A stretch of 64,000 bases of DNA from Nemertoderma westbladi. Its lineage: Eukaryota > Animalia > Xenacoelomorpha. Shown one piece after another: positions 9,752 to 53,869 of the stretch. Under the pieces are notes generated by a model that was not told the DNA's origin, did not search any database, and saw only the letters and a list, made by a program, of their open reading frames with translations. A program made the position numbers and the translations under genes. Within the stretch, counting starts at the first letter, position 1, and each line of letters starts with the position of its first letter. Location: contig JAUCBJ010008325.1 of NCBI GenBank assembly GCA_032718475.1, positions 4,772 to 68,771 of the forward strand, read 5' to 3'.

Positions 9752-10926
9752 TACACGAAGTGGGGCCTTCGCGCAGCACGTGACTTAAATTTAATTTAAG
9801 TACTAATTCGAAAGTATTACTGTATTAGCAAATTTTAAGCAGATTTCGCCTAATCACTTTTTACCTCTTTCATTTCTATTCAGACATTTCTGACTCTAGC
9901 GGTATAGTGAGAACTGAAGATGGATTAGGGTCTCCAGCCCCACAAAGACACAGCCTATGGATGAATAGTACATACGTACATCGGCCAAGTTTCATCTTGA
10001 ATAACGGATAACGAAATGAGAGACGGATCTCACTTTCAGAAATTTCGTCGTATAGCGGCAGACCGACTAAATCCCCCCCCCCCCCCCCCCCCCCCCCACA
10101 AAGACGCAGCATGTAGTCCAGAATATATTGCAAGATTCAGCTTAAACTGATTAAAATCAATGAGACGGGAGAATCTATTCACTTTCAGGCATAAAGTAGT
10201 CCTATAGCGGGTGACTGTTGAACTGATTTTCAACAAAACAAATTTTCAACTTGGCAGCTTTAAATTCGACAAAGTTATAAGCATGTCAATATCATAACGA
10301 CGACAACGATTTCACTTTCAGACATTTGGCCCTCTAGCGGCAGACTGGAGAACTGCAGATGGATTCGCCTCCTTTGAAAGTCACAGCTAATGGTCTAATA
10401 CATATCTGCCAAGTTTCAGCTTAAACGGATTAAAAGCAAAGAAATGGGAGGGCATTTAATGTTTAGACATGTGGCCCTCTAGCGGGAGACCATTGCACTG
10501 ATGGTGTCTGAAAGTCTCTCAAAAATCTCAACTTTAGCTCATATTGATACCTAGAAATTTTCAACTTGGCAGCTTTAAATCCGACAAAGTTATTAGCATG
10601 TCAAAATCGTAACGACGACAACGATTTCACTTTCAGACCTTTGGCCCTCTAGCGGCAGACTGGAGAACTGCAGATGGATTCGCCTCCTTTGAAAGTCACA
10701 GCTAATGGTCTAATACATATCTGCCAAGTTTCAGCTTAAACGGATTAAAAGCAAAGAAATGGGAGGGCATTTAATGTTTAGACATGTGGCCCTCTAGCGG
10801 GAGACCATTGCACTGATGGTGTCTGAAAGTCTCTCAAAAATCTCAACTTTTGCTCATATTGATACCTACAAATTTTCAACTTGGCAGCTTTAAATCCGAC
10901 AAAGTTATTAGCATGTCAAAATCGTA

Positions 10927-10979
<53 letters not shown>

Positions 10980-11057
10980 TATTTGCATAAATTGACCCAC
11001 CCCCTAACAGTGTCAATTCGCTAAGGCTCCGCCAACTTCGTGGCTCGCCCCACAAGT
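9752..11057 (-). mobile_element. Helentron/DINE-like non-autonomous element, copy 1
   Basis: Ends TTGTGGGGCGAGCCACGAAG... and ...CGAAGGCCCCACTTCGTGTAT. Has a (GAC)n microsatellite near the 5' end and internal 315-bp tandem units (10251, 10566, 10881). Confidence 0.65.
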
Positions 11058-11279
11058 CATTATTGAGGGAGGAACAATTACATCTGAATCGTGCAAGAGC
11101 ACCGTTCATTGTGGGTGTTCCTATAGTAATAGGGGACTATTGTTGATATTGTAGTAACTGCTATGGACTCCATTGCCAGACGTTTAAAAACTTAGAAGTA
11201 GCTTGGCGCGTTTCCTCCGAAAGGGTGTTCCATAAACGGACGGTAGATGGTAGAAAGTAATCACGATAAAAGTTAGTCC

Positions 11280-11384
11280 TAGGTAGGTAGGGTAGGTAGG
11301 TAGGTAGGTAGGTAGGTAGGTAGGTAGGTAGGTAGGTAGGTAGGTAGGTAGGTAGGTAGGTAGGTAGGTAGGTAGGTAGGTAGG
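11280..11384. repeat. (TAGG)n microsatellite
   Basis: Direct reading. Confidence 0.95.
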
Positions 11385-11408
11385 GGCGGCCGCAAGTCGT
11401 TTGTATTG

Positions 11409-12233
11409 CTTGTGGGGCGAGCCACGAAGTTGGCGGAGCCTTAGCGAATTGACACTGTTAGGGGGTGGGTCAATTTATGCAAATAGTTGTCGTCGTCGTC
11501 GTTGTCGTCGTCGTTGTCGTCGTCGTTACAATTTTGACATGCTAATAACTTTGTCGGATTTAAAGCTGCCAAGTTGAAAATTTGTAGGTATCAATATGAG
11601 CAAAAGTTGAGATTTTTGAGAGACTTTCAGACACCATCAGTGCAATGGTCTCCCGCTAGAGGGCCACATGTCTAAACATTAAATGCCCTCCCATTTCTTT
11701 GCTTTTAATCCGTTTAAGCTGAAACTTGGCAGATATGTATTAGACCATTAGCTGTGACTTTCAAAGGAGGCGAATCCATCTGCAGTTCTCCAGTCTGCCG
11801 CTAGAGGGCCAAATGTCTGAAAGTGAAATCGTTGTCGTCGTTATGATATTGACATGCTTATAACTTTGTCGAATTTAAAGCTGCCAAGTTGAAAATTTGT
11901 AGGCATCAATATGATCAAAAGTTGAGACGTTTGAGAGACTTTCAGACACCATCAGAGCAATAGTCTCCTGCTAGAGGGCCACATGTCTAAACGTTAAATG
12001 TCCTCCCATTTCTTTGCTTTTAATCCATTTATGCTGAAATTTGGCAGATATGTAATAGACCATAGGCTGTGGCTTTGTAGGGAAACTAATCCTTCCTTCT
12101 TCAGTTACCCAGTCTCCCGCTAGAGGGTTAACGTTTTCCGGGAAAATCTTCTCCTATGTTTTTATAATCCTTTCGAGTTGATACTTAGCATTAACTCATT
12201 TCACGTGCTGCGCGAAGGCCCCACTTCGTGTAT
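11409..12233 (+). mobile_element. Helentron/DINE-like non-autonomous element, copy 2 (inverted relative to copy 1)
   Basis: Same ends, (GTC)n tract and 315-bp units as copy 1, in the opposite orientation. A 3'-end fragment also occurs at ~1900-1920. Confidence 0.65.
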
Positions 12234-13265: not shown

Positions 13266-14404
13266 ATAATGAAAATAAAAACTACAGTAGTATCTATTAA
13301 TACTGTAGATACTACTGTGGATGCTCCCAAATTTAGTTTATTAAAATTTTTGATTTTATCAAATAAAAATATTAAATATACCCCCGCCCAATCCCAACGC
13401 CTTGATATTGTAGTATTAATGTAGCACACAATACAATATACTGTAGTGAAAAATAATACAGTATAATTTTATCAATATACAGGACGGTGTTGACTCCACC
13501 CAACGTTTTGTTGCATTGATTGATTTTACTGATTGAATTCTATTCTAAGCACTGGGTCGTTCAAATGCTTTATTTGTAAATCTTCAGATTTCCTTACTAC
13601 TGTAAGAAAATCGTGTCCGTCAATCTGTTTGTTTGTTTGTTTTTCACACGAAAGGCTGACGATATTATCCTGTCAATTATGTTGTTTTTAGTACCCACCT
13701 GTAGTGTATGGTCTGAATGGGTGTATAAAGCAATTTACAGAAAAATACAGTCATTAGTTTTTGCACAAAAATTTAATAAACGAAAAGTACCATAGAAGCA
13801 GTGGTAAAATAACACCAATAACAATAACAGCTGGTGTTCATGATGAAAAATGGCTTATGTAATGGATTTCTACACAGGCTTAGTATAAATCGATGAGGTT
13901 GCCAAGATTATTGTACTTAGTACACCCATACTGTTTGCTTAGGCCCTACTTCCTAAACTCCACTCCTATACAAGCTTGAAATTCTTCATAGGGTTAGCAT
14001 TAGTGTGTGTTAATTATTTTTAACAGCTGATAGCCTTCTCAGTCAAGGTATGGCCGAATGTGAATTTATTACTGATTCGTGAATAGGTGAATGAATTTTA
14101 GTAATAATGTAGGCCTTCAACTGTAGGTAATGTTTTGAGAGGGACCCAACTACACTATATGTTTGTCTATGGACGGCCTTCTTATAGCCAGCTTGCTGGC
14201 TTTTTATATATTAACTGTGTTCGTCTCTCAGAAGCAAAGACACCAAACGAATTGCAATAAAAACCGAAAAACTACTAAAAGTACCGAAAATATTCACTGT
14301 ATTGCGGTGAAAATTACTTTATACAGAGCCCAGGACCACGCTGAATGAATCCAACGGTATTTTCCTCATATCGCGAGAGCCAGTAGTTTAGGAGGAGATA
14401 GAGG

Positions 14405-14945
14405 TGTGACGGGATCCAGGAGGGATCCCGATTTATCCGATGTGGTAATTTAGTCCACGCGTCCCCGCCGTGTATAAGGGTGAAATAAAGTAACTGAGTT
14501 CTGAAGTTCGGTGTATAATAATAATAGGGCATAGGATATAGATATAGATATAATGTGTACAAGGCGGGATACGGTAACTAAAGTCCCGTGATCCCCTAAC
14601 TAAACTAATTGACTACTAACCTACGCTAGCACTGCTACACTGAGATAACTGAATCACTGATTAATAGGTTATTGGTTATATTGCACGGTGGCCTTACTGC
14701 TACTCAATCGATGCCATTCCCCCCTCTGATTGGTTAATACCCTTGTTGGCGCCCCGTGGAGTATTCCCGTTCACTCCACCTGTTCTCCCTGGGTTAGGGG
14801 TTTGGCCCCTGACCCTCTATTGTGTGCTTCCTTCCCACTCTTATTGGGATGGCACGAGTTGGTTAATTGCCCAATCTCGTGGCTCCCAATATTGCTTATC
14901 GGCTTATAACTTTATGGGGTGTTGGCGGGATTGAATAAGCTAACA
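14405..14945 (-). repeat. 3' LTR (541 bp, TG...CA)
   Basis: Minus strand reads TGTTAG...GTCACA, preceded by the polypurine tract GGGGGGGAG (14946-14954). Confidence 0.9.
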
Positions 14946-15646
14946 CTCCCCCCCATGCTATCTTCCCGGTAAGAAGATAGCATCAACCTAAAAGTGCGTT
15001 ACAATCCCGCTGGATCCCGATCTAGTATCGGGTGTGGGGTGGAATTCTTTTCTCTCGGGGTCGGCTTTCCAGGCCGCCCCCTATGGGTATGATAACGCTA
15101 CCCTGTGTGCCTGGCGTCTCATGTCGGGCCGATCGCGCTCACCTCCCACGCAACTTTTGTTTCCCCAACATTTTCGCCCTATCTCACCTTCACTCTCACC
15201 CTAACTCTCTCACATTCGGACCTCCTCGTCCCTTACTCAGCCTCTTATTCTCCCCCCCCCACACTGGAATTGCATCGGCACTCTCTCCGCACTCCGCACT
15301 ATTATTCCGTCCCTCAACCTCACTTCGACCGTCTCTTCCCTTCTGACGAATCTCCCCCCCTCTCGTGCCGTCGCACTCAAGAAGTGTGAAATTGTCTGGC
15401 GTCTCGTCCATAGTGCCATAGTCAGTTACCCCCCAGTCCCACTAGCTAGTTGAGAAAGGTTGTATGACTATAGTACTTACTCCGATCGTGTATTTTACTG
15501 CTAATTACTACGTACGTACATACAAATTGCACTTATATGATTGTTTGCATTAATTAAATTTGTACTTAATGGTTCGTACGTTGCATGCGGCGCCTTCCAG
15601 GCGCACCACGTCCCAGTCTCAGTCTCACTCCCTCGTATCTGGGAAC

Positions 15647-18600
15647 TTATCTGTTCCTCCTCACGTCCTCTTCCCTGGCCCGTTTCTTGGTTATCACCGT
15701 TCCTCTGGCATCATCCGCTTTCTGCTTCCGGACCTTCGCCGCCACTTCCTTGCTGATCCCGGTCGTTGGCTCCTTGGGCGCTGGTGTTATTAATGCCCGA
15801 TACCGCTTCGCCGGTGGCCCCTCAGAATGGCCTGGTTGTCTCCCTCGTGTGGCGTCCCATAGGATCATTTTCATTGCCTTTGGTACGTGTTCCGCCAAGA
15901 AATCCCTAAACTCCCTCCGGTTCTCTGGTGTCCACCTGTCCAGGTACCGTTGCGTGTTCATAACTCCGGCGAACGATGCCGCCGTGCTACCTCTTGATAG
16001 GTAAACGGTAACCTTCGCTTTATGATTTCCATGTGGGTCTCCTGGTTTATGAGGAAGAAACCCCACTTGAACTCCTGGGCCTTCATGCGCTGGCGCGTCA
16101 TGGCCCCGACGTCGGCCCACTCCTCGAATCTTGTGAACTTCTCCTCGTCGCTCATCCAGTCGCACTCCCGCCCGTAGTGTCCCCGAAAGTGGCACTTTGG
16201 ACATCGGTTATGCAACCGTGGACACGCCCCCATCCTGTGACTTGGTTCTCTACAGTAGAGACAAAAGGTTCCCCGTTGGAACCGGTATAGGCAGCTGCTT
16301 TCCTGATGGGTCTGTCTCCCACAGTAGTCGCAGCCGAGTACCAATGTCTCCCGTCCCACCTCGTCTTTCGTCCCAAGCGATCTCCGCGGTCTATGGAGTC
16401 GCTGGTAGGCGAACTTCTCTACGTTGCTCTCCCTGTTTACGTCGATCTCTCCGCCCCTCTCGGGCATCGTCTCCCCGAATACTATCCGTGGTGCCGTCCC
16501 CGGTTGCTCGCCCAACCTGATGGTGCTCCCCGCGAAATCCATCGCCGGCTCCTCGTGCACCCAGGTCCGCTTGCCGGATCTGTTCCAGAAGGCCCTCGCC
16601 CCACTGGCTGTCACCACCCTTCCGCCAACCCAGTCCGTGTCCGAGTGGCCTATCCTTTCGATGGGCGGCATCTCTCCGAACTCGTCGCCGTCGTCTTCCT
16701 CTTCTGGTAGTGTTTCCAACCCCGGTATCCCGACGGATCCACTATGTCCCTTCCCGCCTTGGCTCTCGCCCGTAGCTCTCCATCCCTCTAGCTCCCTTAC
16801 TACTACTAGGATCGGCATGCTGCATTGCAGCTGCATTTTTAATAATGCTGTGCCGGCTTGTCAACAAAATTGCACCGCCACAACTCCCTATCACCCATGA
16901 CATTTGCTAGATCATCCGCATCTTTAAGGCCAGTGTCCTTTAAGATGCGTCTCAAGAAAGTCATGGGCTGTCCACCATGCTTATTCACTCCATGAGGCTG
17001 CCAAAGTACAAGATTATGCACTGGCTGGTCCTCACGGCGAAAGCAATGTCCTGCAAAGCGGAGGCGATTTTGTTCTAGTGTCAAGCTTGGGGGAACCAAT
17101 GAGACACCTCCAATGTTATATAGTGTCTGGTTGGAGATGTGTGCATTGTACTTGACACAATGAACCCGGCGTAGCATTCTTGTGAATGTGCCATCCAGAG
17201 ATTTGGTGTCCTCAGCAGTTAGAGCCCAGCATGGACTCCCGTAGAGGAGTACTGGAACTACTGCTGCTCTAAATAATCGGACCTTAAGTTTCCGATTAAT
17301 TCTCGGTGACTTCCAAATCCTGGAAAGCCTATTCAAGGCTGCCCATGCCTTTCCCTTACGTATTCGAAGGTCCTCACCTGACTTCCGGATCCATGATCCC
17401 AGGTAACAGAAGTCGTCGACATGCTCAAGCATACCATCCTTTGAGCTTATGCTCATCCGATCACAGACTTGCTGAGGACTTTCAAAGTTAACTGTCAGAA
17501 TTTTGGTCTTTCTGGAGTTAATAAAAAGACCAACACTAGAAGCAGCATGTTCTAATGAGCTGAGGAGCCGTTGGGCTCCCTCTAATGATTCTGAGAGTAC
17601 TCCTAAGTCATCAGCAAAGTCTAGATCAGTTAGGTACTTGGCAGGATTTCCTCGACTTCTGGAGCCAGTAGGTGGAGTTATCATCACCCCATCATCATTA
17701 TGATGATCTAAGGACATGCGTAGAACATAGTCAACCACAATAATGAATAAGAATGGTGCAAGTGTGTCTCCTTGGAGGACGCCCCATAACACTTCAAATG
17801 GTTCTGTGTCACCGTCAACAGTAGACACAAATGTTGTCGAACCATCGTATACCTATACATCTAGCTCCCTTAGCTTCCTTGGCGGTTGGTCGCCCTCGGC
17901 GCCCGCTGGTATGGGCATCGTTTGCAACCCCGACGTCGACTGTTTCGGCGATCCCAACGTCCATCCCAATTCTCGCCCTAGAGACTCCCCCGAACTCCCT
18001 GACGAAGTCCAATGAAGTTCGTCTAGGCCCGCCTGTTCCTCGAAGCCGTAACTCTGTGCCCTGGCCTCCTCTTCCCTCTCCTCTGCTTCTATCCTCTCCC
18101 GTCTAGCGACTTCTTCCAGTCGCTTTGCTTCTCGTCTGTCCGCCTCTAGCTGCTCCCATCTCTGATACGGTGTATCTGTCTCCCCGTCTACCAGATGTCG
18201 GCTGTTGTAGTACACCGACTTGCCCTTCAGCCCCGGGTGGTCTACCAGACCGTCAAAGGCCGTCTTAAAGGCTCTCCTGTAGCTTAGGGGTGATCCCGAT
18301 AACAGAAATGCCCCTGGTTCCCTTTCGATAACTACGGTCATGAATAAGTTAAGCAAACTTATCATCATCCAGTCCTCCTGCAGGATATATCGCTTCTGAT
18401 ATACCTTTATCGCTCCTCTGCGAAACTGATATACCTCCTGCTTTCCCGGTCTCGCTCCCCACTTCAGCGAGTTCGCTAGTTCTGCTCCGTATTCTTCCCT
18501 AAACTTTCCCCAGTCCATCGGTTTGTGGCATACGAGCCCCAATAATTGGCCCATCGCCACCGCCCCGCATTGGCCTGTGTTCTCGACCACCCCCAATCCA

Positions 18601-19254
18601 TCCGGTGCCATCATAGCCATAAAGACTTTCTGCATATCCAGGAGGTTGGTGGCGTCCTGACCAATGATCCTCTCCGCGTCCTCGCGAATCGCCGATCCCA
18701 CTTTCGTCGTCGACTTCTCTCTTACTAATACTTGTACCGCTTTCGGCAATCGGTCTAATTTCGGCCCATCCCTCTTCCCATACGTCCCTAGGTCGAATAA
18801 GAAGATGTCCCCATTTGGCGCGGCCAAATGCAAGAGTATGGTCCTGGCCGACCCTGCCGTTCCTCGTCTCGAACCCGCTTCATCTTCCACGGTTCCCTCG
18901 TCATCTAGGATCATATATCCTCCTCTGTTGACGGACTCTATGAATCTTTTCCAGTCCTTTCTCGGTGATTCCCTCGGGTACTTCGGAATCCCGAACTTCG
19001 CCTCGTCCCCTTTCACCACGTAGTGGAAGTGTTGGAAGATCGCGTTGTCCAGCGACGGCGTTCCGTAGGTCCCGACCAGCCGCTGCTCGTGCATCTCCCG
19101 GAAGTGGTCCTGCAGCGCTCGTGCCGCGTGACCCCTTTCCAACTTCTCGTAGTATCCTCTCGTCTTCTCCTCCGGGTGTCTTTCGGTGAAATCCACCAGT
19201 ATTTCTTTTCCATTCTGACTCCGCCTTTCTCTTCCTGATCAGCTTACTCGCCAT
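15647..19254 (-). pseudogene. Accessory ORF of the BEL/Pao element: DEDDy-type 3'-5' exonuclease plus 3 CCHC zinc knuckles, interrupted by RTE
   Basis: Exo motifs YMILDDEG, LLHLAAPNGDIFLFDL, LPKAVQVLV...KVGSAIRED and QKRYILQED. Knuckles CDYCGRQTHQESSC, CLYCREPSHRMGAC and CPKCHFRGHYGREC. The frame 19196-15958 is restored (2166 nt) when the RTE and one TSD copy are removed. Probable single-base frameshifts near 19206 and ~15985 would extend both ends. Confidence 0.8.
16800..17859 (-). mobile_element. 5'-truncated RTE-clade LINE with 13-bp TSD
   Basis: ORF 16839-17828 contains GVLQGDTLAPFLF, LDFADD, YLGSW and RLRFAGHC. (TAG)n 3' tail; TSD TCTAGCTCCCTTA at 16787-16799 and 17860-17872. Confidence 0.95.
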
Positions 19255-19762
19255 TCCGAATGCTACACTCGCTCACCTGCAGGGTGGTGCCTTACCAAGG
19301 CGCAATACAGATGAGTGAAGTATTTAAGATGTTTCGTACAGTTCGATAATGGCCTACTTTCTACTTAATTGCGCCTTTCAAGCTAAATTTAGCCTAATTA
19401 ATTTCGGAGCTAGTAAATCAGCCTAATTTACAATTTCCGTCCGTTACTTTTATTATGTTCTAGAACGACTTTCCTTGTGTTGCCACTATTTTTCGATTTT
19501 TAGTCCTATTCTATTTATTTGTTTGTTTGCTTTGATTCTACTGTCCTACTACCTACTACTGCCTATGGGTTTATTCTATTCTCTGATCCATATTCTGGCC
19601 TACTCTGTGGGCCCATGCAGTACAGCAGTATGCGTCGTGTGGCCACACGATTTATCCAGCTGTACTCATATGCCCCCCTCTCGCTACTAACTCTACTTAC
19701 TGCTAACTAATATCTATATCCTTTTTACCCCTTTTACCTCTCACTCTCTCTCTCTAACTAAT

Positions 19763-20803
19763 GGTACTACGTACCCCCTAACTCTAACTCTAACTAGGTA
19801 CCACGCACCTACTAACTCTAACTCTAACTAGGTACTACGTACCTACTAACTCTAACTAACTATTGGTACTACGTACCCTCTAACTCTAACTCTAACTAGG
19901 TACTACGTACCTACTAACTCTCTAACTATCGGTACTACGTACCCTCTAACTCTAACTAGGTACTACGTACCTACTAACTCTAACTAACTATTGGTACTAC
20001 GTACCCTCTAACTCTAACTCTAACTAGGTACTACGTACCTACTAACTCTCTAACTATCGGTACTACGTACCCTCTAACTCTAACTCTAACTAACGGTACT
20101 ACGTACCCTCTAACTCTCTAACTATCGGTACTACGTACCCTCTAACTCTAACTAGGTACTACGTACCTACTAACTCTCTAACTATCGGTACTACGTACCC
20201 TCTAACTCTAACTCTAACTAACGGTACTACGTACCCTCTAACTCTCTAACTATCGGTACTACGTACCCTCTAACTCTAACTAACTATTGGTACTACGTAC
20301 CCTCTAACTCTCTAACTATCGGTACTACGTACCCTCTAACTCTAACTCTAACTAACGGTACTACGTACCCTCTAACTCTCTAACTATCGGTACTACGTAC
20401 CCTCTAACTCTAACTAACTATTGGTACTACGTACCCTCTAACTCTCTAACTAACGGTACTACGTACCTACTAACTAACTAACTCTAGGTACTACGTACCT
20501 ACTAACTAACTAACTCTAGGTACTACGTACCTACTAACTAACTAACTCTAGGTACTACGTACCTGCTAACTCTCTAACTCTAGGCACTACGTACCTACTA
20601 ACTAACTAACTCTAGGTACTGCGTACCTACTAACTAACTAACTCTAGGTACTACGTACCTACTAACTAACTAACTCTAGGTACTACGTACCTACTAACTA
20701 ACTAACTCTAGGTACTACGTACCTACTAACTAACTAACTCTAGGTACTACGTACCTGCTAACTCTCTAACTCTAGGCACTACGTACCTACTAACTAACTA
20801 ACT
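19763..20803. repeat. ~27-36-bp tandem array inside the BEL element, between pol and the accessory ORF
   Basis: Core GGTACTACGTACC plus variable (CTAACT)n spacers; two sub-arrays. Confidence 0.95.
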
Positions 20804-20912
20804 ATTATTTTTATTTTATTTTATTTTTATTTGTGTGGGAAGGGCGTCTCGCCCTCAATCCCACCCCCCTCAGTCCAAAACTTGGACGACTAAACTCCAC
20901 TCTAACTCCAAT

Positions 20913-23900
20913 TTAAGGTGCCCCTTCTAGAAGACAGCATTTACCTACCGCTCTCCTGTAGGTTTTTCTGTCCTTCGCACCTATCTTTCCACCTATCCGC
21001 ACTTCTACCGATCGGACTCTTCCGTCCTCGTCGGAGTAGGTGCCTACAACTCTCGCCAACCGCCACTGGTTGTTGATGATAGTATCATCCGTAACGATTA
21101 CGAGATCTCCTACTTTTAACTCCCGATTCGGTTTCCTCCACTTGCTTCGCTTATGGAGCGTGGGTAGGTATTCTTCTACCCACCTCCTCCAATACTCTGC
21201 GCTTATTGCTTTAGCGACTTTCCAACTCTGGCGGGAATGTATATCATCTGGGTCTACACCCCGCATATCGATGGTCGCTGGCCTTTCCATCAGAAAATGG
21301 CTAGGCGTCAACGCGTCTAATGACTCAGGGTCATCATTCTCCGGGTATAGCGGTCTGCTATTAATGATCCCCTCGCACTTCGCAAGTACTGTCCGTAAAA
21401 CGTCCTCAGTGACCATGTGGGTGTTCATTAACTTCGTCATTAGACGCTTTGAACTGCCCACCAGTCTCTCGACGCATCCTAGTGTATGTGGTGCATACGG
21501 CGTCCTTCTCTCCCACTTTACTTGTCGTCTCCTCATGGCTGCCCTGACTTCTTCTCCCTCCAAGATGTCCAAGGCCTCTGCCATCTCATTCTCTGCGCCC
21601 ACAAAGTTGGTGCCGTTGTCGCTGTATATCACTGCGATCGTCCCACCTTTGCGGTCCCTAAACCTTTCTAAGGCGTTAATGAATGCTGATGCGGTTGCAT
21701 CTTGGGCGAGTTCTATCCCTACCGCCCGCGTATTGTTGCATACGAAGATAATACCGTAGCGTTTCTCCGTGTGTCGCATCACCTTGATCTTTATCGGCCC
21801 GAACATGTCCACACCGCAATGCGTAAATGGCGGGTCGTGCTATCTTACCCTACTCGCCGGTAGTGGCGCCATCTCCTGTACGGCTCGTTCCTTCTTCGCT
21901 CGTCGGCAGGTCTGGCACTGCCCCACTACCGTTTTAACCTTCTTCCTTAGTTGTTTGACCCAATAGGTCCTCCTTATCTCTGTGAGGGTTCGGTTGGTGC
22001 CCCCATGCAATATCGATTTGTGGGAGTCCCATATGATCTGGTGGACTATAGGCAATCCTGTGGGAATGATGATGGGTTTCGGTGGCACGACTATGCTGTT
22101 GTTATATCCCACCCTAGAATTCATTACTAGAATCCCATCGTCGTTGAGTTGCGGCGACAGTGTAATCAACTCGCTGTCCCGTCGGAGGTGCTGTTGGTTG
22201 CCGACACGTTCCACCTCGTCGCCGTAGTTCTTTCGTTGTTCATAGCGGATTATTGCCTTGGCCGCTCCTTCCAGATCTATGGTTTCCCTGGTTTTCTTCT
22301 CCTTATTAACTCCCGCGAGGAAATTCCCGAAAGCTCTCCAGTACGCCACTAATTTCTTGGTCTTGTACCAACTAGAACTGTAGCTGAGGAGTTTGTCCGT
22401 CGGGTTATCGCGTAGTTCTTGCTTTGGTTGCACGTCCCTAATCTCCCTCACCATCTGGGAGTATATCTCTTCTCCCTCTGAGTCTCCCTCTTCTCCCTCT
22501 GATATTGGTTCCGAGCCCGGGTCCACCTTCCTCATCGGCGGCCAGGCCTCCCTATCACTTAGAAATTGTGGCCCATGTTGCCACAATACTTCCTTCTTTA
22601 AGAAAGTGTGGCGTTCCACGCCCCTCGACAGCAAGTCCGCTGGGTTCTCGTCTGTTGGGCAGTAGTGCCACCTTTCCAGTTCTGTGCTCGCCCTTATTTC
22701 GTCCACTCTATTCGCGACGAATATCGGGTATCTCGTCTTTTCGTTGTGTAGCCAACCAAGCACTACCATGGAGTCCGTCCAGTAGTGTGTCTCCACTATG
22801 TTGGGAATTGTATCCACTAGGTAGGCTGTGGCTCTAACTCCTAGTCTCGCAGCTGTCAATTCTAACTTGGGAACAGATGCTGAATCTGGCGGCGTTGACT
22901 TAGCTTTGCTAAAGGCTAGTCTGGGCTTGTGAGCCCCCTCTCGTTGTACTAAATAGAGTGCCGCTCCGTATGCCTCTAACGACGCGTCGGAGAACATATG
23001 TAGGTCCAGATTCGTCATGTTCCCGTCCGGAAAATACACTCGCGGCATGTTGTATGTTCCCATCCTCTCCAAGTCTCCTGTCCATTTGCTCCACTGTTTC
23101 TTGATGTCCTCTGGTACCTCTACGTCCCACTCATCCTTCAATTTATATACTCTCTTGAGTATCTGTTTCCCCGTGACTAGTAATGGGGATGCTAGGCCTA
23201 GGGGATCGTATATCCTTGCTATATACGATACATAACCCCTCTTCGTATGGGTGTCTGCGCCCTCTTGGCTCAGCTGATACTTCAGTTCGTCTGTTCCTCT
23301 ATCCCACACGATTCCCAATGCCTTTTGCTGCGATTGTGTTCTCTTATTCGCCATGTCCTGTCCTTTGGCTGTTGTAGGGTTGTCCATGGTCGATTCCGGT
23401 TTCTTGTCCTCTATTGCCTTGATAAATTCTTCTGAACTGGATTGGAATTTGGTCAGGTTGAAGCCGGATCCTTTCAGGATGTCGCGAACCTCGCGCCCTG
23501 TTTCCAGTATCTCCTCAACCGTATTTCCAGACTCCATACCGTCGTCTACGTAGAAGCCGCGTCGGATCATATCGACGGCCCTACTGCTGTATCTATCTTC
23601 CTTGCCCTTTACCGTGTCTCTCACTGCCATAGTCGTCGTAAATGAGGACGACTTGGCCCCCATGTTTTGTACTACCATCTTATACGCTGGTATTACCGGC
23701 GGTTCTTCTTCGCCGTTATACCATAAGAAGCGTTGACTGTCACTATCTTCTTCCGTTACACGGACCTGGTTGAACATGCCTTCTATGTCACACGTGAAGG
23801 CGTGTTTCCCATTTCGAAATCTAAGTAACACCTCTATGCCCGAATTGTAAATATTTGGGCCTTCCAACAGGTAATCGTTTAAGCATTTTCCGTCGGTCTT

Positions 23901-26900
23901 TGCCGATGCATCGACTACCATCCTAAGTTTACCTTTCTTTGGGTCTAATGCTACGTGGAGTGGCAGGTAGTATGTCCTGTCCGTGTTCGGCTCGTCGACC
24001 GGTAACTCCACGGCCCATCCCTTCTCGACGTACTTCTTAATTGTTTTGTGAATGTACTCGTTCTTCTCGGGGCTCCGTTTTAGTGTTTGTTTCAGCTTAC
24101 GAAGTCTCGTGAGTACCATCCCTCTATTATCGGGTAGCGGTATCTTCGGTAGTTTCCATACCATTCCTATTGTATACCGCCCCTCATCACACGTCATCGA
24201 TTCCTCCACGCTTTGTAGAGCCTGGTTGTCTTCTACCGAGGTCCTGACCCCGGTCTCTTTCAGTCCCTCAAAGTCTTGTCTGAGCAGTCTTTTAAGCTGC
24301 TCCTCTGCTCCCTCATCACCCATTTCCTGCATTGTTCCCACGAACATGCATCCTGATGTCTCCGACATCCTGAATGGTATCTTGCTCTTAATTGGACCAC
24401 TCAGCGTCCACCCGAATGGTGTTAATATAGCCACCGGGTCGCTCTGCTTGTCTTCGCCGAAGACCGTTTGCATTCTTTCGTGGGCCGTCGGGCAGTCCAT
24501 TCCCACTATGATGGATACCTTCCTAACGTCCACGTCTGGGATCGAGAAGTCAATGTTGTCCAGGAATTTGTATTGCTCGATCTCGATGTTGGTTGGCCGC
24601 CTGGCATTGATGTTAATTGACTCTATTACTTGGATGGGGTCGATGGTTGCCCCATAATCGCATCCTGGTGCCACTGCTGCAATTGCGCACCATCCTGTCC
24701 TCATCTCTAGGATCTCATCTTTGCTAGAGATGGTTGTTACCGCCATCCTGCTTGGCCTTGTTCTCAATCCTATTTCTTCGGCTACCCATTCCTCGACTAA
24801 TGTGAAGGCAGCTCCACTATCAACCAGCATTAGTGTTGTTACTGATCGATTGCCTTCCCCGATCACTCGCACCGGTACTACTCCAAGTAACACCGTGCCT
24901 CTCTTCTTCGCCCCTACCGTGCTCGTGCTCGTTGCCATCGTTTGGCCTCTCCTTTGGCCAAACTTGACCGGCTTCTCTTGGCATTCCCTGGCCTTGTGTC
25001 CACTCTTCACACATCGCGAGCAGATTTTATTGCTCGACGCGTAATCTATCTGGTCTTGCCTCGGTAGCGCCTGCCAGTACCTGCAGTTCATGGTTTTATG
25101 AAGCGCATTTGCGTGTAGCTGGCATTTGCTCTTTGGGTCGTAGCCCTCTTTATACAATGCATTGCGTATCGCAGTTATATTCGTACCAAAGTCCCTACTA
25201 TTCTTGTTGACTGGATTTGGCCTACTGGACGTACTGGGGTTATGTTTATTCATGTTGTTATTGTTCCCCTGTCCGTTCCATGATGTAGTCTTGTCTTCGT
25301 TTGCCTGTGGACTTGCTGTCCCCTGGGTCGCTGCGTATGGCAATGATTGCCTGAGTCTCGGCAATGCGTTTGATGTATTGTGCTCTGGTTTCGGCCTGTA
25401 GTGATCTGTCTTTGGTCCCTTTCCCAGGCTATCTTCACTATAGACTGGGTCCGTTATTAGTTCAGCCTCGTAATTTAAGAAGTTTGACATTTCTTCTAAA
25501 CCCGGTTCCGCACCCTTCTTGTCTCGAGTGGAGAAAGCGATCTTCCTCCACTTGTTGCGCAGCCAGTTCGGTAGTGCCTGCGCTATCGTGGTGATGTTGT
25601 TGGACGCATTGAGCTCGTATGGCGCGTCTAGCGTCTTCAACACGATTAGCGCCTTTTCGACTTTGTTAGCAAACGTCTTGATGCTAACGGGGTTATCCTG
25701 TAGGCCACCCGATGTTATGCCTCTCAGCGTCTGCCTGATGATCTTGGCCGGGTGCCCGTATTCCCTATCCAGTGCCCGCCATGCTGTCGTGAAGCCGCCC
25801 TCTATTCCCTGATATTGCCTCACGATGTCGTATGCTGGGCCTCCCGTGTACACTTGTAGATACTTTAGGCACTCCGCCTGCGTCAAGTTTTTTGTTAGTA
25901 TTTCGTTACTATACATTCGCCGAAACTGTAAATATTCTTCCGGCCTACTCCCGTCGAACTTGAATGGTTCCACGGGTGGTAACTCGATCCTCGTTTTCAA
26001 AGCATCGATCAATGTGGCCATCCCTATCGCCTGCGCTTCCAATGGATTCGACGGGTGCTGTATAGTTTCCCCTGTTTGGTGCGTTCCGTCTGTCCTACTT
26101 CTTGACCTTCTCTGGCTTGGGTATGTCATTGGGGGTAGCGGCCCCCTCCATATATCTGTGTCACGCGATCTGTTTTCGTCCAGGGGTCTCGTTGTTCTTG
26201 CTACCATCGGGGTATATTGTTGATATTGTGATGGGGGAATGTCACCCTGCCCCCCCCCCCCCACCGGTATGTTTGGTAATGGGGTTGATGTTAATATGTT
26301 GGGGCCCATGCACCTATCCGCAATAATTCCCCCCTCCCCTGGGTATATGTTATGTCCCTGCATGCTGTAGTCATACTGCTGTGCTGGTACCGGTATAGGC
26401 CTATCAGCTTCTGGCCTACCCGCCGGTATGTACTCCGCGACTTCCGGGTTTAATCCCGTCGTTCGCGCTACCCCATCGCCTACTCTATCTCTCCCAGCAT
26501 GGCCTACGGTATGTGCAGTAAGACCTACAGTATGCCCTACAGTCTGCATGTGTTGCTCGGGATCGAAGTTTATTCTTCTCGAATAATCCTCCCCGCGGCT
26601 ACCGTATTCTCGACCGGTAGGTATATTCCGTCGGAAAGTTTCTCTTCGACCCCCCTCTCTACTGTTTTCATCTTCGTAGTGGTACATCGTGTACCCCTCT
26701 CTCGGCGTGTAATGCGTCTCACCGGATCGCATCCCTCCGGGGCGACGGCAATCTCCCGGAGTCCGACCCCACTGACTCTCCGTTCTCATCTGGACTACCG
26801 ACGGCTCGCTGTCCGTCCTCGCTCTTCTATCGTTTGCGGCGATACTTCTACTACTGTCTTCCTTTCTTCTCCTATCAGTGGAATATTCCCGCTCGCGAGA

Positions 26901-29464
26901 TCTCTCGTCGACCTCCCGGTTAAACCCCACTGTTCTTCTTCCCTCCTCTGATCGGGCCCGACGCTTCGTCCGCCCTCTCGCGACGTCAACCTGTCTCTCT
27001 CTGCTCGATCGCACGCCGCTGGGGATACTCGCGATCCCCCTATTACTTTCCGTCGCCGGTCGTTGCGGTTTACCTATTTCGGCCCTCGCATTATCCGCTG
27101 ACGGCTGTGGGAGACTCCCTGCCCCCCCCCTCTCGCCGCTAACTCCCTGTTGTGGGGTCCTCGTAGCCCCCCCCCACTCGCTACGTCTAACTTAGCTACC
27201 TCTCTCCCCGCTATTATATACCTCTCTAGTCGACACATCAACCCTACTGCGGTCGGGTCCATTCACCCCCGCCTCTCCCTCTGCTATTGCGTGGCCTACC
27301 AGGCCCTCTACTCCCTCCCTACCAACTACGTGGCCTACCAGGCCCTCTGCTCCCTGTCTACTAACTACGTGGCCTACCAGGCCCTCTGCTCCCTGTCTAC
27401 TAACTACGTGGCCTACCAGGCCCTCTGCTCCCTGTCTACTAACTACGTGGCCTACCAGGCCCTCTGTTTCCTGGTTATGCAGGCCCGACGCGTTTACATT
27501 AATAGCACCCATATTGGAAACGGAATTATTTTGTTCGTTTGGAACAAAGTTATTTATATTATTCTGCACGACTACGTTATCTGAATTATTTTGTAAATTC
27601 GGGCATAGGTCATTATTTAAATTATTCGAATTATTTTGCGTAATTGCGTTATTTAAATTATTTTGTAGATTCGAATTTGGGTTATTATTTTGATTATTTG
27701 AATTATTTTGCGTAGCTACATTAATATCAGAATTATTTCCTACATTAATACTAGGGGCGTTCTGATTTAAATTTAAATTACTACCACTATGTAAAGCATT
27801 CCCTGTAATAAAGGTTAGATTAGTGTTGTCCCATACGGTATTATCAATATTAACAACGTCTACTGTACCATTATTATTATTACCCCCCCCCCGCCCGTAC
27901 GGTCGCACCAGTCTTGAGTCTGTCGTGCGGTCCCTGTCAGTGGGGTATTAATAAATGTATCTACGGCCCTCGGCTCCCTAAAAATACTCGAGCCGGCCCC
28001 GCTTTCAGACGGCGACGCTCGCACCAGTTGCAGCTCGTGCGCCCGTCTAATCTTATCTCCCGCAAGCACATTCTGGCGTTTCCTTATTTCTTCCTGCTCT
28101 CGTTCAGCCTCTGCCTTTCTCTTCTCACACTCCTGGGTGTCCCGGGCGGCCGACTCCGGTACACTCCTAATACTCTCCCTTCGTCTCGCCTCTCGCTCCT
28201 GACGTTCCTTTTCCTCCCTTGCCTCACGCTCCTTACGTTCCGCCTCACGCTCCTTGCGTTCCCTTTCCTCCCTTGCCTCACGCTCCTTGCGTTCCCTTTC
28301 ACGCTCCTTGCGTTCCCTTTCACGCTCCTTGCGTTCCCTTTCCTCCCTTGCCTCACGCTCCCTACACTCCCTTTCCTCTATCTCATCATACTCCCTTAGG
28401 CTTTTCAAAGCCCTTTCGGCCCTCTCTCCGGTTTCTTTAAGCAATGCCGTTTCCCTCTCTAACCGCACTCTCCCTTCCTCTAGCCGTTCCTTCATTTCTC
28501 TATGACCTTGCTCTGCCATGCTGAGACGGTATGCGGCACCTATTTCTCTCACCGCTCTTTCTTTCGCGGAGGATGTAACAGACTTATCGGTTACGACGGA
28601 TTTCCCCCGCCTTCCCGACCTACTGACTTTCCCCCGCTTCCCGGAGCTTTCTCCGACCGACGAGGCCGAATCCTCGGGGTTAACCTCGGATTCGCCCCCT
28701 TCGAGTCCCCTCCAACCTACTGGTTTTACTCCCCGGGCATCGACCAAGTATGGCCCTATGTACACTGACGCTACGCTAGGTTCCATACTCCCACATTCCC
28801 ACAGTTCAAACAGTTCCCCGGCAATCTCATGTGCTCTCGTTTCGGCTAGTTCTCTCTGCCCAAAACGTATTAGATAATTAAAGTGTCTATCCGACTCACC
28901 TAGTCGCTTTCTCAGTCTCACCTCGTCTACCTTCGCCCCTTCCTTCTTGGCATCCTTTAGCATCCTCCGGGCCGCGATGTAGGCTCGTCGAAGTCGCTCT
29001 GAAACCCCGACGTCCTCGTCGCCGACCTCTCCTCCGTCCCTCCGGGTTCGACGTCGTACCGGCGGCTCCACCGTCGCCGTTCCGGTGGGCCGTCCGTCGC
29101 CCTCGGCCTGTAGCTGGCCGGCGACATCGGTACCGATCTCTCCTCCGTCTCTTCGCGTCCGGCGTCGCACCGTTGGCCCCACCGTCGCCGTTTCGGTGGG
29201 CCGCTCGTCGCCCTCGGCCGGTAGCTGGCCGGCGACATCGGCGCGCCGTTCTCCGTCTCGTGTCGACTCGTCTCCATCTCCCTCCATCTCGCTCCCTTCC
29301 TCTCTTGGCTCGACTTCGGGTTCCAGACTCTCCTCGTTCTGGACTTCCGGTTCGCCCGTTATCGATGGCTCCGGCGTGGTGGGCCTGTATCGCTTGGTCG
29401 CGGCCTCGCGGATCGTTTGATCTTCGTCCGGGGTCCGCGGCGGTGTCTCGCCCGATTCACTCAT
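20913..29464 (-). pseudogene. BEL/Pao gag-pol polyprotein, disrupted
   Basis: Coiled-coil N-terminus; gag knuckle CSRCVKSGHKAREC; protease LVDSGA; RT FYVDDG; RNase H FSDAS...WTDS; integrase HGG...CQTC and DNGTNFVGA. Lesions: a frameshift in the G-run at ~27883-27892 and in-frame stops TAA (27192-27194) and TAG (21840-21842). Confidence 0.92.
27289..27466. repeat. 39-bp coding tandem repeat in gag (~4.5 copies)
   Basis: Encodes (AEGLVGHVVSRQG)n on the minus strand. Confidence 0.9.
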
Positions 29465-29544
29465 CTCGTCTGGTCGGTGGAGTTCGGCTAGCTAGCAGTG
29501 TAGTTCTTAGAGTTTAACTGGGGCGGCAGCTCGGATTTAGTTAC

Positions 29545-29661
29545 TGTGACGGGATCCAGGAGGGATCCCGATTTATCCGATGTGGTAATTTAGTCCACGC
29601 GTCCCCGCCGTGTATAAGGGTGAAATAAAGTAACTGAGTTCTGAAGTTCGGTGTATAATAA
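29545..29661 (-). repeat. Remnant (U5 end) of the 5' LTR
   Basis: Identical to 14405-14521 over 117 bp, then switches abruptly to unrelated protease-coding sequence. Confidence 0.9.
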
Positions 29662-32600
29662 CGGTCCCCTACCCCGTGCAAAGACCTCAACTCTATTTGT
29701 ATCTCCTCGGCGTCCTGGAAGCTAGAAACAGCTCTCGCCACTTCCTCGTCGATATACGATAATGTGGACGCAGTGTCCAACATCACATATATTCGCTTAG
29801 ACCCCTTATCGCCAGTAAGTTTCACCGGAATCACGCTAAATATTTCCAACGTGGCCGATGATAAATACGTCCGCGCGCTGGTCGATGAACTATCCGCGGT
29901 GAAACCTTGGTAGGTCACCTCTCTTGCGCTCGACTCGCCATCCTCGTCCGACGAACCTGGTTGATAACCATCGTCTTGGATGCCGGTATACGTATTCCTT
30001 CTTATCGATACGGGTTCTTTGCTCCCCTTCCTGTGAGGATTTCGCTGTAAGTAACAGTCCGTTGGGGTATGGAAATCCGCATGTAGCAACTTGTGATGAG
30101 TCTGCCGCATTCCATGCATCCGTCCTTGCTGTTCGGGCACTGCCGCCGTACATGACCTGGCGCAAGACATGCCCAACAGGTGTCCAACGTCCGCACTTGA
30201 ACTCTTCTCTGTTCCGAATTTAATTCTTTGAACCGTCTGCAACTATCTAACTTATGGTCGTCAGATCTTACCTCCTTTAGTAAACAGTATTGGCAACCTA
30301 CAAATCCATCCGGCAACTCCTGTTGCTTTAACCTAGGTCTATCTAACCGCTCACCTGACCATACTCGCGAGTCTGATCTAAAGGCTGGGGTACTCGAATT
30401 ATATCTGTCTACTGAGTTAAATGTCACAGTGGTCCTATCATCGTCAAAACTTACCATAGACTTACCGGTAACAGGTTTAGACTCTCTCATATTCTCTTCT
30501 GAGAAGTTTGATTTCATCTCTGCTACTGCGTCTGTGGCTATCATGTCATGAATATGCTGAAGTGTCAATACTTTACCTTGGCCTTCCAACTTATTCTCTA
30601 ATTTGCGCCATTTCTGTCGGTAACGCATGTTTAGACGTCTTATTACGCTCTTCAAAACTTCGGCGTGATCACCATGATGAGGTAGATTCACCGTCTTCAA
30701 GATGTCCAATGCGTTCGAAATAGCATTCGCTAAGTTCAACAGCTCTAACGGAGTTGTAATCCTTCCGCCCTTACCCAAGTCTTCTACTATCGACTGTGCC
30801 ATCTTGGTTTTATTCCCGTAGATGTCGCTAAGCGTCTTCATCGCTAACTCGAATGCTCTTTCATTGCCGACGAAGTTGTCAGCAATGGCTCTAGGTTCTC
30901 GATGGAGCATCTGAAGCAAATAGTTGAACTTCTCGTTGGGAGTAAAGGTGCTGTTGGTTAGCTGTTCGTCGACATAGGTTTTGAACGTCCTCCAATGCTT
31001 ATGGTTGCCCATAAACTTCTGGGGTTGTTGCGTCGGCAGTCCTTGCCTAGCAGCAAACTTACCTATGTCCCTAAGGGTTGCGTCGTTCCGGGTTAACAAA
31101 TGGTTTAGTTCTGCAGGGTTGTTAAGTCTGGTCCTTTCCCGGGGATTAAAACTTACCTGCTCCGTGTCCGTCCTTCTCTCCTTATAGTTTCGGGACTTCT
31201 GACGTCTCATGTCTTCCTCTTCATCGCTTGATTCGGTGTCAGTCCTTAGCGCTCGCGATGGTTTGCGTGCCGAGGCCCTGACCCATGCATCCTGTATAAA
31301 TTTCTCTGCCGAATTTTCGAAATCGGGATTATGGATATTCGGGACAGGCGTCCTTACCTGAGGTCTATGTGGTATAGTTTCCTCCGATATACGTACTCGT
31401 TGACTAGGCTGGACTTTATCTGACTCAGGCCTGCTAGGATTAGAATTACTTCTTACCTGGGCTGTTTCCTTTAACCGTAGGTTACTAAGCATGTCCGTTA
31501 TAGGTTGGATGTGCGGCGATATAGCTTGCGCTAAACTAGCACTTAACTCATCCCTTGTAATAAATTCCTGGCTAGGGTTCTGTTGTATAGTCGACTCTAT
31601 CTGAGTAATCCGCTGTCTCTCATATGATCCCTCTTCCGGTTTAACCCGGAAGTTCTCCGTCGAACTGGGTCGGCGCTCCGTCCGCGTATTCCAAACCCGC
31701 GGGTTCGGTTCGCCCAATACTCGGCCCGTCGGAGTTTCTCTAAACTCTTCGTTGTCTCGTTATGTAGTGGTGCGGTGTTCTGATGACGTGGATTCTGCGC
31801 GATAGGTGAAGCACTAATACCAACTGGTGTACGATATGTAGAGAACGGTTTAGCGATCCGAGTACTCGTAATAGCTGGACCGGGTATAGGAATTCTGGTC
31901 GTCGTCGACTCGCGTATAGTCGGAGTTCTCGCTTCCTGTTCGGCCTTCTGCAGTGCGAACAGTTCTCGCAACTCGGTCCCTACACTCGCCCCACATTCTT
32001 CGATCATTCGCATCCCCTTCTCGGCGATTTCATTTGCCTTTCTAGTCCGTTCCTCGCTCTCTAGGTTTAATCTCGCACTTTCCAACTGCGCCAGTTTACG
32101 TTCTTCTTCTTCCCTCGCTCGTCTCGCTGCGCTCTCTTCTTCCACACGCGCCTTCTCTTCATACAACGCCCGTCGCTCCCTCTCGCGCTCAAGTTCGCGC
32201 TCCTTGCGCTCGCGTTCGAGTTGGAGTTCGCATCTTCTTTGCTCGCGTTCCTTAGCTTCCCGTTCGCGTTCGAGTTGGAGTTCGCGTTCTTCGTGTTCGC
32301 GTTCGAGTTGGAGTTCTCGTTCTTCGCGTTCGCGTTCGAGTTGGAGTTCTCGTTCTTCCTGTTCGCGCTCCACTTGCTCACGCTTACCTTTGTCTTCCAA
32401 CTCTCGCAACTTTGCGTCTAACTTACGTGTGCGCTCCCGTTCCCGCTCGGCTTCCTTCCGTGCTTCAGATGCACGCAAAACTTCCGCCTGCTGTTCGTCC
32501 AGTCGGCGTCTTCTCTCCTCCGCCGAGTTGTGAGAAACAAGGGATCTAGCACATATAACTTTGGTGACTAACCTGGGAATCGCCACTGTCTCTAGATGCG

Positions 32601-33277
32601 TCGTCGGGTGGAGTTAACGTTCTCTGTTGGATATTGTCCGTCGTCAGCAGCACCTGGCCCGGTACCACCACTCCACTCTGCATCAGCCAGCTGGTAACTT
32701 CCCGTTGATACCTGCGCTCCTCCTTATCCTGCATCTCTTCTCGCTCCACTAAGTTTCTTAACTCTGCGTCACTCACTTGGGTCGCCTGCGCTTGTGATGC
32801 CCATAGCAACCAGTTCTCCGTCCTAACTCGCCGAAATCGCTCCGATAACGCGCGGTGCTCTAGCAAGGCTGCTAAAACCCTGTCGTAAATCCTCGTCGCC
32901 ACGTCGCTCGACTGAGACTCCACTGTTCTCTTTGCTAGGACTGCAAGCTCCTCCGTCTGTTTGAATAACGCTGAGTTGTATCCCTTTCTAATCTCTACTA
33001 ACCCTTCCCTTCCGATGTTCGCTGAGTCGGCTAGCATCTTCCTTACCTTGTCCGCCGTCCGGGTTATATGTCCGGCATGCGCGCGAAGTTTCTTCTTTAT
33101 CGCGATGTCAAATTCTCTTTCGCTTACCTGACTCACACTTGGTGGACTTGAAGGATTATTTCGGGAACTACGGGTACTCCTTATAGCCGCTGGGACCACG
33201 GCACTTACCATACCCACAGGTCTGGAAACCGGGCTCCGGGCTCTCGCTTCTGCTATACTACCCTCCCTATCACTCAT
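29662..33277 (-). mobile_element. Second, distinct BEL/Pao element: frameshifted gag plus protease, truncated
   Basis: Overlapping ORFs in shifting frames: coiled coil, Pao gag core (KFMGNHKHWRTF...EKFNYL), knuckle CWACLAPGHVRRQC then ...HHKLLH, protease YVMLDTAS. No LTR recognised. Confidence 0.85.
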
Positions 33278-33416
33278 CTAATTCAAAATATTCAAAAATG
33301 AATTTGCCACCCAAATATTTCTAACTTTATATATATATAGCTCAAAATCAATGTAATTTTATTTTTAAATATTATTTCTATATCCACTAGCGCGTGGCTA
33401 CACCTTCAGGTTGCGA

Positions 33417-33418
<2 letters not shown>

Positions 33419-33461
<43 letters not shown>

Positions 33462-53095: not shown

Positions 53096-53790
53096 ATTGT
53101 GTCTTTGCTTGAAGTTCGCCTTCGTCCAGTCTCGGCTTGTTAGAGCGGGTGTGTTCCAGAATGCGCTGTCAATTTCGGAAATTTTCGCTGTATTGATGTT
53201 TAAATATATTGTAAACTCCTCCGTCTTTGGCAATTTGTGGCTACTTTGGAGTTCTATTGATAGATTGCGTTCCTGCGCGATGGCGATGACCAGGCGATTA
53301 TGTGTGTTTTTGTGTAGACCCAATACACGTTTTAGGTATGATGACTTTATTTTATCGAGAGTAAGGAAATTTGTAGCTGTGAGGTGCGGCCATATTATCC
53401 CGAGGCTGTATGTTACACACGGCCGAATTTTCAGGTTGAACAGTTTTATTGCTGTCTCGAGTGATAACAGTTTGGTATCTTTAATCGAATGAACAGCCGA
53501 AAGCGATTTAGTTACAATTTTCGATATATGCATTGTGAAGCAGAGTGTTGTTTGGAATATTACGCCAAGGTAGGTGTAAGAGTTGGTAACTTTAACTGTA
53601 TCGTTGTTGTAATAAAATTTATCTTCTCTTGACAACCTCCCGCCCTTCCTAAACTTAATAATCTCGGTTTTGGTCAGATTAACCTGTAGTCCGTTGTGAG
53701 CCGCCCACTTTGCTGTTGCATTCAATGCTGTTTGTAGACCTTCTCTGGATTCGCAGTAGATAAGAAGGTCGTCAGCAAAAAGAAATACTA
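53096..53790 (-). mobile_element. Fragment of a different LINE (RT C-terminal half), fused in frame to the downstream LINE
   Basis: LFADDLL...GLQVNLTKT...YTYLGV is a second RT palm/thumb within ORF 51017-53842. Confidence 0.8.
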
Positions 53791-53869
53791 TTACTGCGAT
53801 GGCTGCGCGTTTGATTGCAACGATTAAGTCTAAAATAAACAATATAAATAGGAATGTATAAATAGTAAA

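Follow-up and report, generated by a model that had tools for sequence, protein, structure and literature searches.

The locus described here raises the question of what a BEL/Pao retrotransposon of the xenacoelomorph Nemertoderma westbladi carries in the slot where env would be expected, and what such a gene could do for the element. The element lies in a window of 64,000 nt from assembly GCA_032718475.1 (contig JAUCBJ010008325.1, forward-strand positions 4,772-68,771), and all coordinates refer to this window. A first reading of the DNA letters (the original prediction) had placed a sense-strand open reading frame (ORF) between the integrase and the polypurine tract (PPT) and 3' long terminal repeat (LTR), a position borne out by the Pfam layout, the stop-free frames and a likely PPT. 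The gene, which we call ORF3, is a real multi-copy accessory gene under purifying selection. Its N-terminal half very probably adopts a DEDDy fold with the motif register D98, E100, D173, Y270 and E274, as indicated by HMMER profiles, ESM features, alignment and a partly circular structure model, and its C-terminal half contains three zinc knuckles. That the protein is an RNA 3'-exonuclease which counters host silencing by PIWI-interacting RNAs (piRNAs) is plausible, and we put it forward as a tentative reading. The parts of ORF3 are, in the order of the minus strand:

19252..19254, minus strand: likely ORF3 start codon ATG, out of frame in the window copy
17860..19238, minus strand: N-terminal half of ORF3 (helical N-region, exonuclease domain, charged helix, linker), from the ORF list and shuffles
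18309..18983, minus strand: predicted DEDDy (WRN/RNase D/EXD-like) 3'-5' exonuclease domain, from profile, ESM, alignment and guided model
18903..18905, minus strand: D98 (MAFFT register)
18897..18899, minus strand: E100 (MAFFT register)
18678..18680, minus strand: D173 (MAFFT register)
18387..18389, minus strand: Y270 (MAFFT register)
18375..18377, minus strand: E274 (MAFFT register)
18372..18374, minus strand: D275, adjacent to E274
17860..17872, minus strand: target-site duplication, copy 1, 13 nt (direct repeat)
16800..17859, minus strand: 5'-truncated non-LTR insertion that splits ORF3, with a reverse transcriptase frame at 16839-17852 (RVT_1 E 4e-10)
16787..16799, minus strand: target-site duplication, copy 2, 13 nt (direct repeat)
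15958..16786, minus strand: C-terminal half of ORF3 (acidic linker, three knuckles, helical tail), from the ORF list
15647..15961, minus strand: basic ORF of 104 codons (net charge +12), its ATG overlapping the stop of ORF3 (ORF list)

The stop-free frame at 17853-19238 comprises 461 codons and was stop-free in none of 5000 base shuffles; a second stop-free frame of 300 codons occupies 15958-16860, and a reverse transcriptase (RT) fragment separates the two. The insertion at 16800-17859, a long interspersed nuclear element (LINE) which we take to be RTE-like, was already thought to split ORF3. This is confirmed by the RT fragment, by the 13-nt direct repeat, whose two copies share their codon phase across the ORF3 frames, and by the LINE-free junction 16786>17860, which is present in all three DNA runs (X1, X2 and X3, from two samples) but does not appear for X5, possibly an RNA run; up to 199 contigs have loose ends at the LINE border. 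A protein of 721 amino acids starting at 19196 had been proposed for the rejoined frame. The codon counts indeed sum to 721, but 19196 is not a start codon and 721 amino acids is probably too short. A one-base indel near 19212 separates the window copy from the others (nearly all covering depth), and the natural protein therefore likely starts at the ATG at 19254. Near the opposite end, another one-base indel (near 15985) occurs in 17-40% of the contig depth in the three DNA runs; because of this indel and the overlap of the basic ORF with the ORF3 stop, the natural protein may run into the 104-codon ORF. The latter may be a separate, coupled ORF or a frameshifted ORF3 tail, possibly the true tail in some copies. 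It has no family match in curated domain libraries, and by eye its lysine/arginine clusters resemble nuclear localisation signals. A repeat suspected to flank the ORF3 cassette was dismissed as chance (181/500 shuffles).

For the exonuclease domain, 93 bacterial PF01612 domains from genomes served as references, 44 of them short stand-alone domains. A profile of these 44 scored 6.7 bits against the ORF3 domain, a value reached by none of 2000 shuffles (HMMER, single-target E 4.5e-4), and the 93-sequence profile gave 5.1 bits, above all 2000 shuffles. Comparison of ESM features gave 0.94 for the trimmed domain (183/256 shared), and 30 of 30 matches were PF01612 when named clusters only are counted, the top one being a Werner-like exonuclease; on a longer region a PF01612 cluster scored 0.89. 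Shuffled proteins reach 0.9 by this measure in 4-10 of 100 cases. In a MAFFT alignment D98, E100, a lysine, D173, Y270 and E274 align with columns occupied by D, E, K, D, Y and D, respectively, each invariant in 45 of 45 references. All six columns were matched by one of 309 shuffles, and the six together with the D-x-Q and tryptophan columns by none of 309; this metric was run after one on 19 conserved columns, and the residues had been named beforehand in the original prediction. The named residues D98, E100, D173, Y270, E274 and D275 are all in place, but the ExoIII acid in register is E274 and not D275: the motif reads DEDE-y, with Glu at ExoIII instead of Asp and an Asp one residue further. 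With hhalign, whose scores were not significant, the ExoII segment lay in the expected register for three of four PF01612 clusters.

A structure model was obtained with AlphaFold when the 45 references were supplied as alignment (predicted local distance difference test, pLDDT, 77; predicted template modelling score 0.75). The model is DEDD-like but, being steered by DEDDy sequences and without control, partly circular, and the unguided single-sequence model reached a pLDDT of 32. Compared with RNase D, NrnC, Nibbler, EXD1 and WRN, the guided model gave Z 11-12.5 with a root-mean-square deviation of 3.5-4.7 over 146-193 aligned residues, and it also matches EXD2, Egalitarian and giant-virus 3'-5' exonucleases; TM-scores are modest (0.29-0.55). 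The Z-scores are tied across the DEDDy subfamilies and favour no single subfamily of origin. On the longer region (18159-19121, minus strand), the three best ESM matches (0.89-0.90) are unnamed clusters of eukaryotic proteins of 213-214 amino acids, commonest in Basidiomycota; these are possibly other mobile-element exonucleases.

The three CX2CX4HX4C knuckles expected in the C-terminal half lie at 16291-16332, 16222-16263 and 16162-16203. None of 20000 shuffles contained three, and individually the knuckles remain below the Pfam cut-off (zf-CCHC_4 only E 0.11). CCHC knuckles bind single-stranded nucleic acid. An env function for ORF3 was rejected: there is no transmembrane segment (best 19-residue hydropathy 1.3 in the N-terminal and 0.04 in the C-terminal half) and no family match.

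Comparison between copies shows that ORF3 is maintained. All 30 bins of 14300-22000 were covered in X1-X3, and contigs covering ORF3 range from near-identical to about 81% identity. Variants were analysed from the best-supported 40 of 165 variant rows in 18300-19300, three of which lie beyond the indel near 19212 and were dropped; 28 of the remaining 37 are silent. At sites polymorphic between copies, 21 of 25 changes are silent as compared to 32% expected from the transition/transversion mix (binomial p ~1e-7, pN/pS ~0.09); because the variants have common ancestry, this p-value exaggerates the significance, although the trend itself is clear. Read in the other two minus-strand frames, 5 and 2 of the same 25 sites would be silent. 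Seven of the 11 variants in which the window copy stands nearly alone are silent, and one variant row, seen almost only in X4, was counted in neither group. For the C-terminal half, 3 of 5 sites among the rows listed are silent, a small number of sites. The codons of the catalytic residues are untouched by any of the 37 analysed variants. The objection that ORF3 might evolve neutrally is thus contradicted by the excess of silent changes. Third-position GC is 0.64-0.71 in ORF3, 0.57 in the pol of the element and 0.42 in the LINE. Contig joints tie the ORF3 leader to a tandem array that follows the integrase; no contig spans the array from integrase to ORF3, and we therefore infer, rather than observe, that ORF3 is linked to pol in other copies.

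How could such a protein serve the element? DEDDy enzymes act on free 3' ends. If ORF3 encodes an active nuclease, a separate and probably spliced message would yield a protein in which the triple knuckle would grip single-stranded RNA, and the metal-dependent DEDDy domain, with Glu at ExoIII, would chew unprotected 3' ends, presumably of RNA rather than DNA. Its targets would be piRNA precursors, over-trimmed before protection, or sliced element RNA, destroyed before it could feed amplification. The outcome would be a weaker silencing of the element by its host, and the gene would pay for itself in the germline; such an anti-silencing benefit would explain repeated capture by unrelated retroelements. 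The DEDDy relatives Nibbler and MUT-7 trim the 3' ends of pre-piRNAs (PMC11347159). The more specific proposal, that a deep BEL/Pao lineage independently gained an active DEDE-y exoribonuclease with a triple knuckle as an anti-piRNA weapon, a Nibbler-like enzyme turned on its host, is more doubtful. Several points weigh against an anti-piRNA exoribonuclease. Its RNA substrate, its catalysis and its piRNA target are all predictions, and its fourth acid is Glu where Asp would be expected. In Egalitarian all five residues are retained although the protein can do without them (bioRxiv 2025.08.03.668247), and for the rotifer ORFs of this type, which are compared below, Rodriguez et al. found no clear link to copy number (PMC5408684).

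It is rather unlikely, though it deserves consideration, that ORF3 instead assists replication: the knuckles, bound to genomic RNA, would bring the protein along into the particle, where the nuclease would trim untemplated or mispaired 3' nucleotides of the complementary DNA or, in a variant that shares the same modest chance, would trim the RNA primer back to the duplex before strand transfer or integration. The closest ESM feature matches are WRN-like and the WRN class includes DNA exonucleases (PMC5408684), while DEDDy exonucleases of RNA viruses have been read as fidelity aids (PMC8297929). A weak hint comes from the primer-binding-site (PBS) position, which lacks an initial TGG and is complementary over 9 nt to an LTR-internal site (equalled in 17/2000 shuffles), but the energy of the PBS-LTR duplex is ordinary (122/300 shuffles, not significant). 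Most BEL/Pao elements replicate by gag-pol alone (PMC3118150), and ORF3 is a separate gene whose route into particles is presumed.

To a similar degree doubtful is a pseudo-nuclease RNA adaptor of the Egalitarian/EXD1 type, which would grip RNA 3' ends or stem-loops without cutting; fold and knuckles together would then localise, shield or package element RNA, or sequester silencing factors. The Glu at ExoIII fits this explanation, as does the ExoI motif D-x-E-G, which equals D561-x-E563-G564 of Egalitarian, a protein with dispensable catalytic residues that transports the RNA of the I-factor retrotransposon; EXD1 is inactive as well (bioRxiv 2025.08.03.668247). It is harder to reconcile with the four acids and the tyrosine, which are all in register despite a divergence that has erased detectable sequence similarity and whose codons escaped the analysed variants. 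Moreover, the rotifer ORF3s, which were interpreted as potentially active, likewise contain Glu in a variant motif, DEED (PMC5408684).

An anti-piRNA exonuclease, like the two alternatives above, presupposes the DEDDy fold. That the gene is real and selected while its N-terminal domain has another fold and matches the motif by chance is improbable, but a number of negative results speak in its favour or weigh against the anti-piRNA exonuclease. Pfam, NCBIfam and PHROG returned no match for the exonuclease domain (PF01612 none at E up to 10), so that the PF01612 family membership put forward in the original prediction is supported by profile, ESM and motif register and not by these libraries. 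Profiles built from RNase D or PolA sequences only were weak (15/2000 and 162/2000 shuffles as high), hhalign with the single query against four PF01612 clusters was not significant (8-40 of 60 shuffles as high), and of all 19 conserved columns nine were matched, which 33 of 291 shuffles also reached and which is not significant. The unguided fold failed, and the ESM threshold is occasionally reached by shuffles, as described above. Sequence searches across protein representatives and metagenome, viral and genome contigs gave no ORF3 homologue. None of 7994 candidates matched the N-terminal half, the knuckle region was found in none of 54 longer proteins, and ORF3 was absent from 596 metagenome, 21 viral and 108 genome stretches and from phages; the integrase was found in none of 5 viral contigs. 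PDB sequences gave nothing significant for ORF3. PF01612 occurs in none of the 120 pol homologues listed, and the profile built here from PF01612 domains matches none of 121 proteins. Candidates that did appear were rejected. The single match among 1.84 billion representatives is spurious, a stretch of 18 residues being matched 14 times along an unrelated repeat protein; two plasmid matches are weak (E 3), and the one inspected is antisense to another gene. The domain gave 42 weak matches in 301 bacterial genomes, of which 15 of 20 loci examined were stop-free, none of these 15 being PF01612. Against a chance match stands that the family was named before testing and was then recovered by the ESM matches, the HMMER shuffles and the invariant columns. 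Finally, a passive cargo, i.e. a captured host fragment or separate insertion without function, is hardly credible and largely refuted: no single contig joins ORF3 to pol in other copies, but the silent-change excess is strong, contigs down to about 81% identity cover ORF3, and its third-position GC resembles that of pol and not of the LINE.

A published counterpart of ORF3 exists in the bdelloid rotifer LTR elements Juno and Vesta, which are of the Ty3/gypsy type. DEDDy ORF3s were described by Rodriguez, Kenefick and Arkhipova (2017, PMC5408684) in Juno1/2 and Vesta2/5, as well as in Athena/Terminon elements, and reviews repeat this account (PMC6431247, PMC6338049). Like the gene described here, the rotifer ORF3 is a third, non-env ORF that lies downstream of pol in an LTR element of an animal and encodes an RNase D/WRN-like DEDDy domain in which one Asp is replaced by Glu; it has no transmembrane domain, has elicited the same functional guesses, and its activity is likewise only predicted. 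Unlike ORF3, which has the DEDE-y motif, the rotifer proteins carry DEED, and the accessible text describes no knuckles in them and contains the words BEL and Pao 0 times. Selection was tested in that study on env and GDSL ORFs only, which looked neutral. The Juno, Vesta and Athena proteins are not among the matches of our ORF3 protein searches and were compared by description only. ORF3 is thus similar in kind to the rotifer genes but belongs to another superfamily, and any kinship to the rotifer lineage would be conjectural.

With the cellular DEDDy exonucleases (WRN-exo, EXD2, Nibbler/MUT-7, RNase D/Rrp6, EXD1 and Egalitarian; PF01612), ORF3 shares the predicted fold, the order of ExoI, ExoII and ExoIII, a lysine that precedes ExoII, a D-x-Q strand and a W-x-x-R-P segment. 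It differs from them by its low identity (about 9-19%), by insertions after ExoII and before ExoIII, by the Glu at ExoIII and by three C-terminal knuckles, and no HRDC or HEAT domain was seen. The DEDDy genes of plant closteroviruses (WRN class, PMC8297929) are also captured exonucleases that form a separate gene in a mobile RNA-based genome, but these are plant RNA viruses with clear homology (E 6e-40) and no reverse transcription, and the accessible text mentions no knuckles. Canonical BEL/Pao elements (de la Chaux and Wagner 2011, PMC3118150) have the same gag-pol order and Pfam markers and an LTR within 0.2-1.2 kb, but consist of gag-pol with env in few and measure 4.2-10 kb, whereas the present element spans about 14.5 kb once the LINE is subtracted. 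In the accessible text of that survey env is the sole extra gene mentioned, and the word exonuclease occurs 0 times in the main texts of PMC3118150, PMC8556966, PMC8220671 and PMC13524379. The architecture, which the original prediction had regarded as possibly undescribed, is therefore known in its non-env DEDDy ORF3 aspect from Juno/Vesta, but no BEL/Pao case was found in the literature searched, which left out most subscription journals and supplements, and an annotated example may exist in Repbase or Dfam. Four features seem to be new, namely the BEL/Pao host superfamily, a triple knuckle, a DEDE-y motif and the evidence for selection.

The remainder of the element is composed of the following features:

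20913..29491, minus strand: gag-pol (Gag DUF1759, protease, RT, RNase H/Peptidase_A17, integrase, DUF5641), from Pfam and the ORF list
29545..29661, minus strand: 5' LTR remnant, last 117 nt, ends CA, 100% identical to 14405-14521
29536..29544, minus strand: PBS position, first bases not TGG, with 9 nt of complementarity to the LTR-internal site 14574-14582
19754..20857, no strand: tandem array with periods of about 32-68 nt between integrase and ORF3 (repeat scan)
14946..14954, minus strand: likely PPT, a 9-nt purine run followed by TGT
14405..14945, minus strand: 3' LTR, 541 nt, TGT...ACA, probable start placed from the PPT and end from the 5' remnant

The Pfam scan of 29491-20913 detected Peptidase_A17 (E 6e-40), DUF1759, Integrase_H2C2, DUF5641 and rve, in the order gag, protease, RT and RNase H, followed by integrase, and with the Pao markers PF03564, PF05380 and PF18701; the element is therefore a BEL/Pao element. 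All 120 pol homologues listed carry PF05380, and those with names are invertebrate, mostly marine. Identity of the RT-RNase H region to these 120 database proteins does not exceed 35%, and the lineage is therefore an unsampled one. After the integrase, the tandem array, ORF3, the short basic ORF and the purine run with TGT follow in this order. The window copy is dead, since gag-pol is broken into four frames (27860-29491, 27192-27947, 21840-27191 and 20913-21839) and the 5' LTR is reduced to 117 nt, for which reason the LTR start above is a deduced one. The tandem array differs in length among copies, as seen in contig joints; it could carry regulatory signals for the ORF3 message, and it blocks short-read assembly across the element. 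TCAGT words occur at 14643-14660, and the LTR site at 14574-14582 lies some 60-85 nt downstream of them; the PBS-LTR complementarity makes self-priming a possible but weak lead. Just upstream of the likely PPT, a short perfect inverted repeat with an 8-bp stem was noted by eye (14958-14980, minus strand). The Gag of the element has a single canonical knuckle in a six-frame scan (about 24950-25150, minus strand). Presumably, this Gag lacks the third motif usual in BEL/Pao Gag, for which the ORF3 knuckles might compensate. A different, second BEL/Pao gag-protease fragment (29662-33420, minus strand; DUF1759, knuckle) adjoins the 5' LTR remnant directly, and the junction looks like a deletion or a recombination between two elements.

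Elsewhere in the window, an uninterrupted frame of 2206 codons (55298-61918, plus strand) encodes ankyrin repeats and WGR, PARP regulatory and PARP catalytic domains (Pfam), intronless over 6.6 kb, which is unusual for an animal gene of such size. A 955-codon reverse transcriptase frame (51017-53884, minus strand; RVT_1 E 6e-41) probably belongs to a non-LTR element. At 10238-12095, a GGTA microsatellite is flanked by long inverted repeats of up to 610 nt (94-99%), which are foldback-like or resemble miniature inverted-repeat transposable elements.

How animal LTR retrotransposons counter piRNA silencing is largely an open matter. The rotifer DEDDy ORF3 class was published without evidence of activity or selection; the present case adds a second LTR superfamily and purifying selection, and supplies a compact domain in which residues are already named. 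Neither Pfam nor annotation at the BLAST level picks up ORF3, so the number of such genes is probably underestimated. Should the protein be a replication helper or an RNA adaptor, it would still be a new BEL/Pao accessory gene, though of narrower interest. If, on the other hand, the anti-piRNA function is true, then together with the rotifer cases the combination of exonuclease and knuckle would represent a counter-defence module that recurs in animal LTR elements of different superfamilies.

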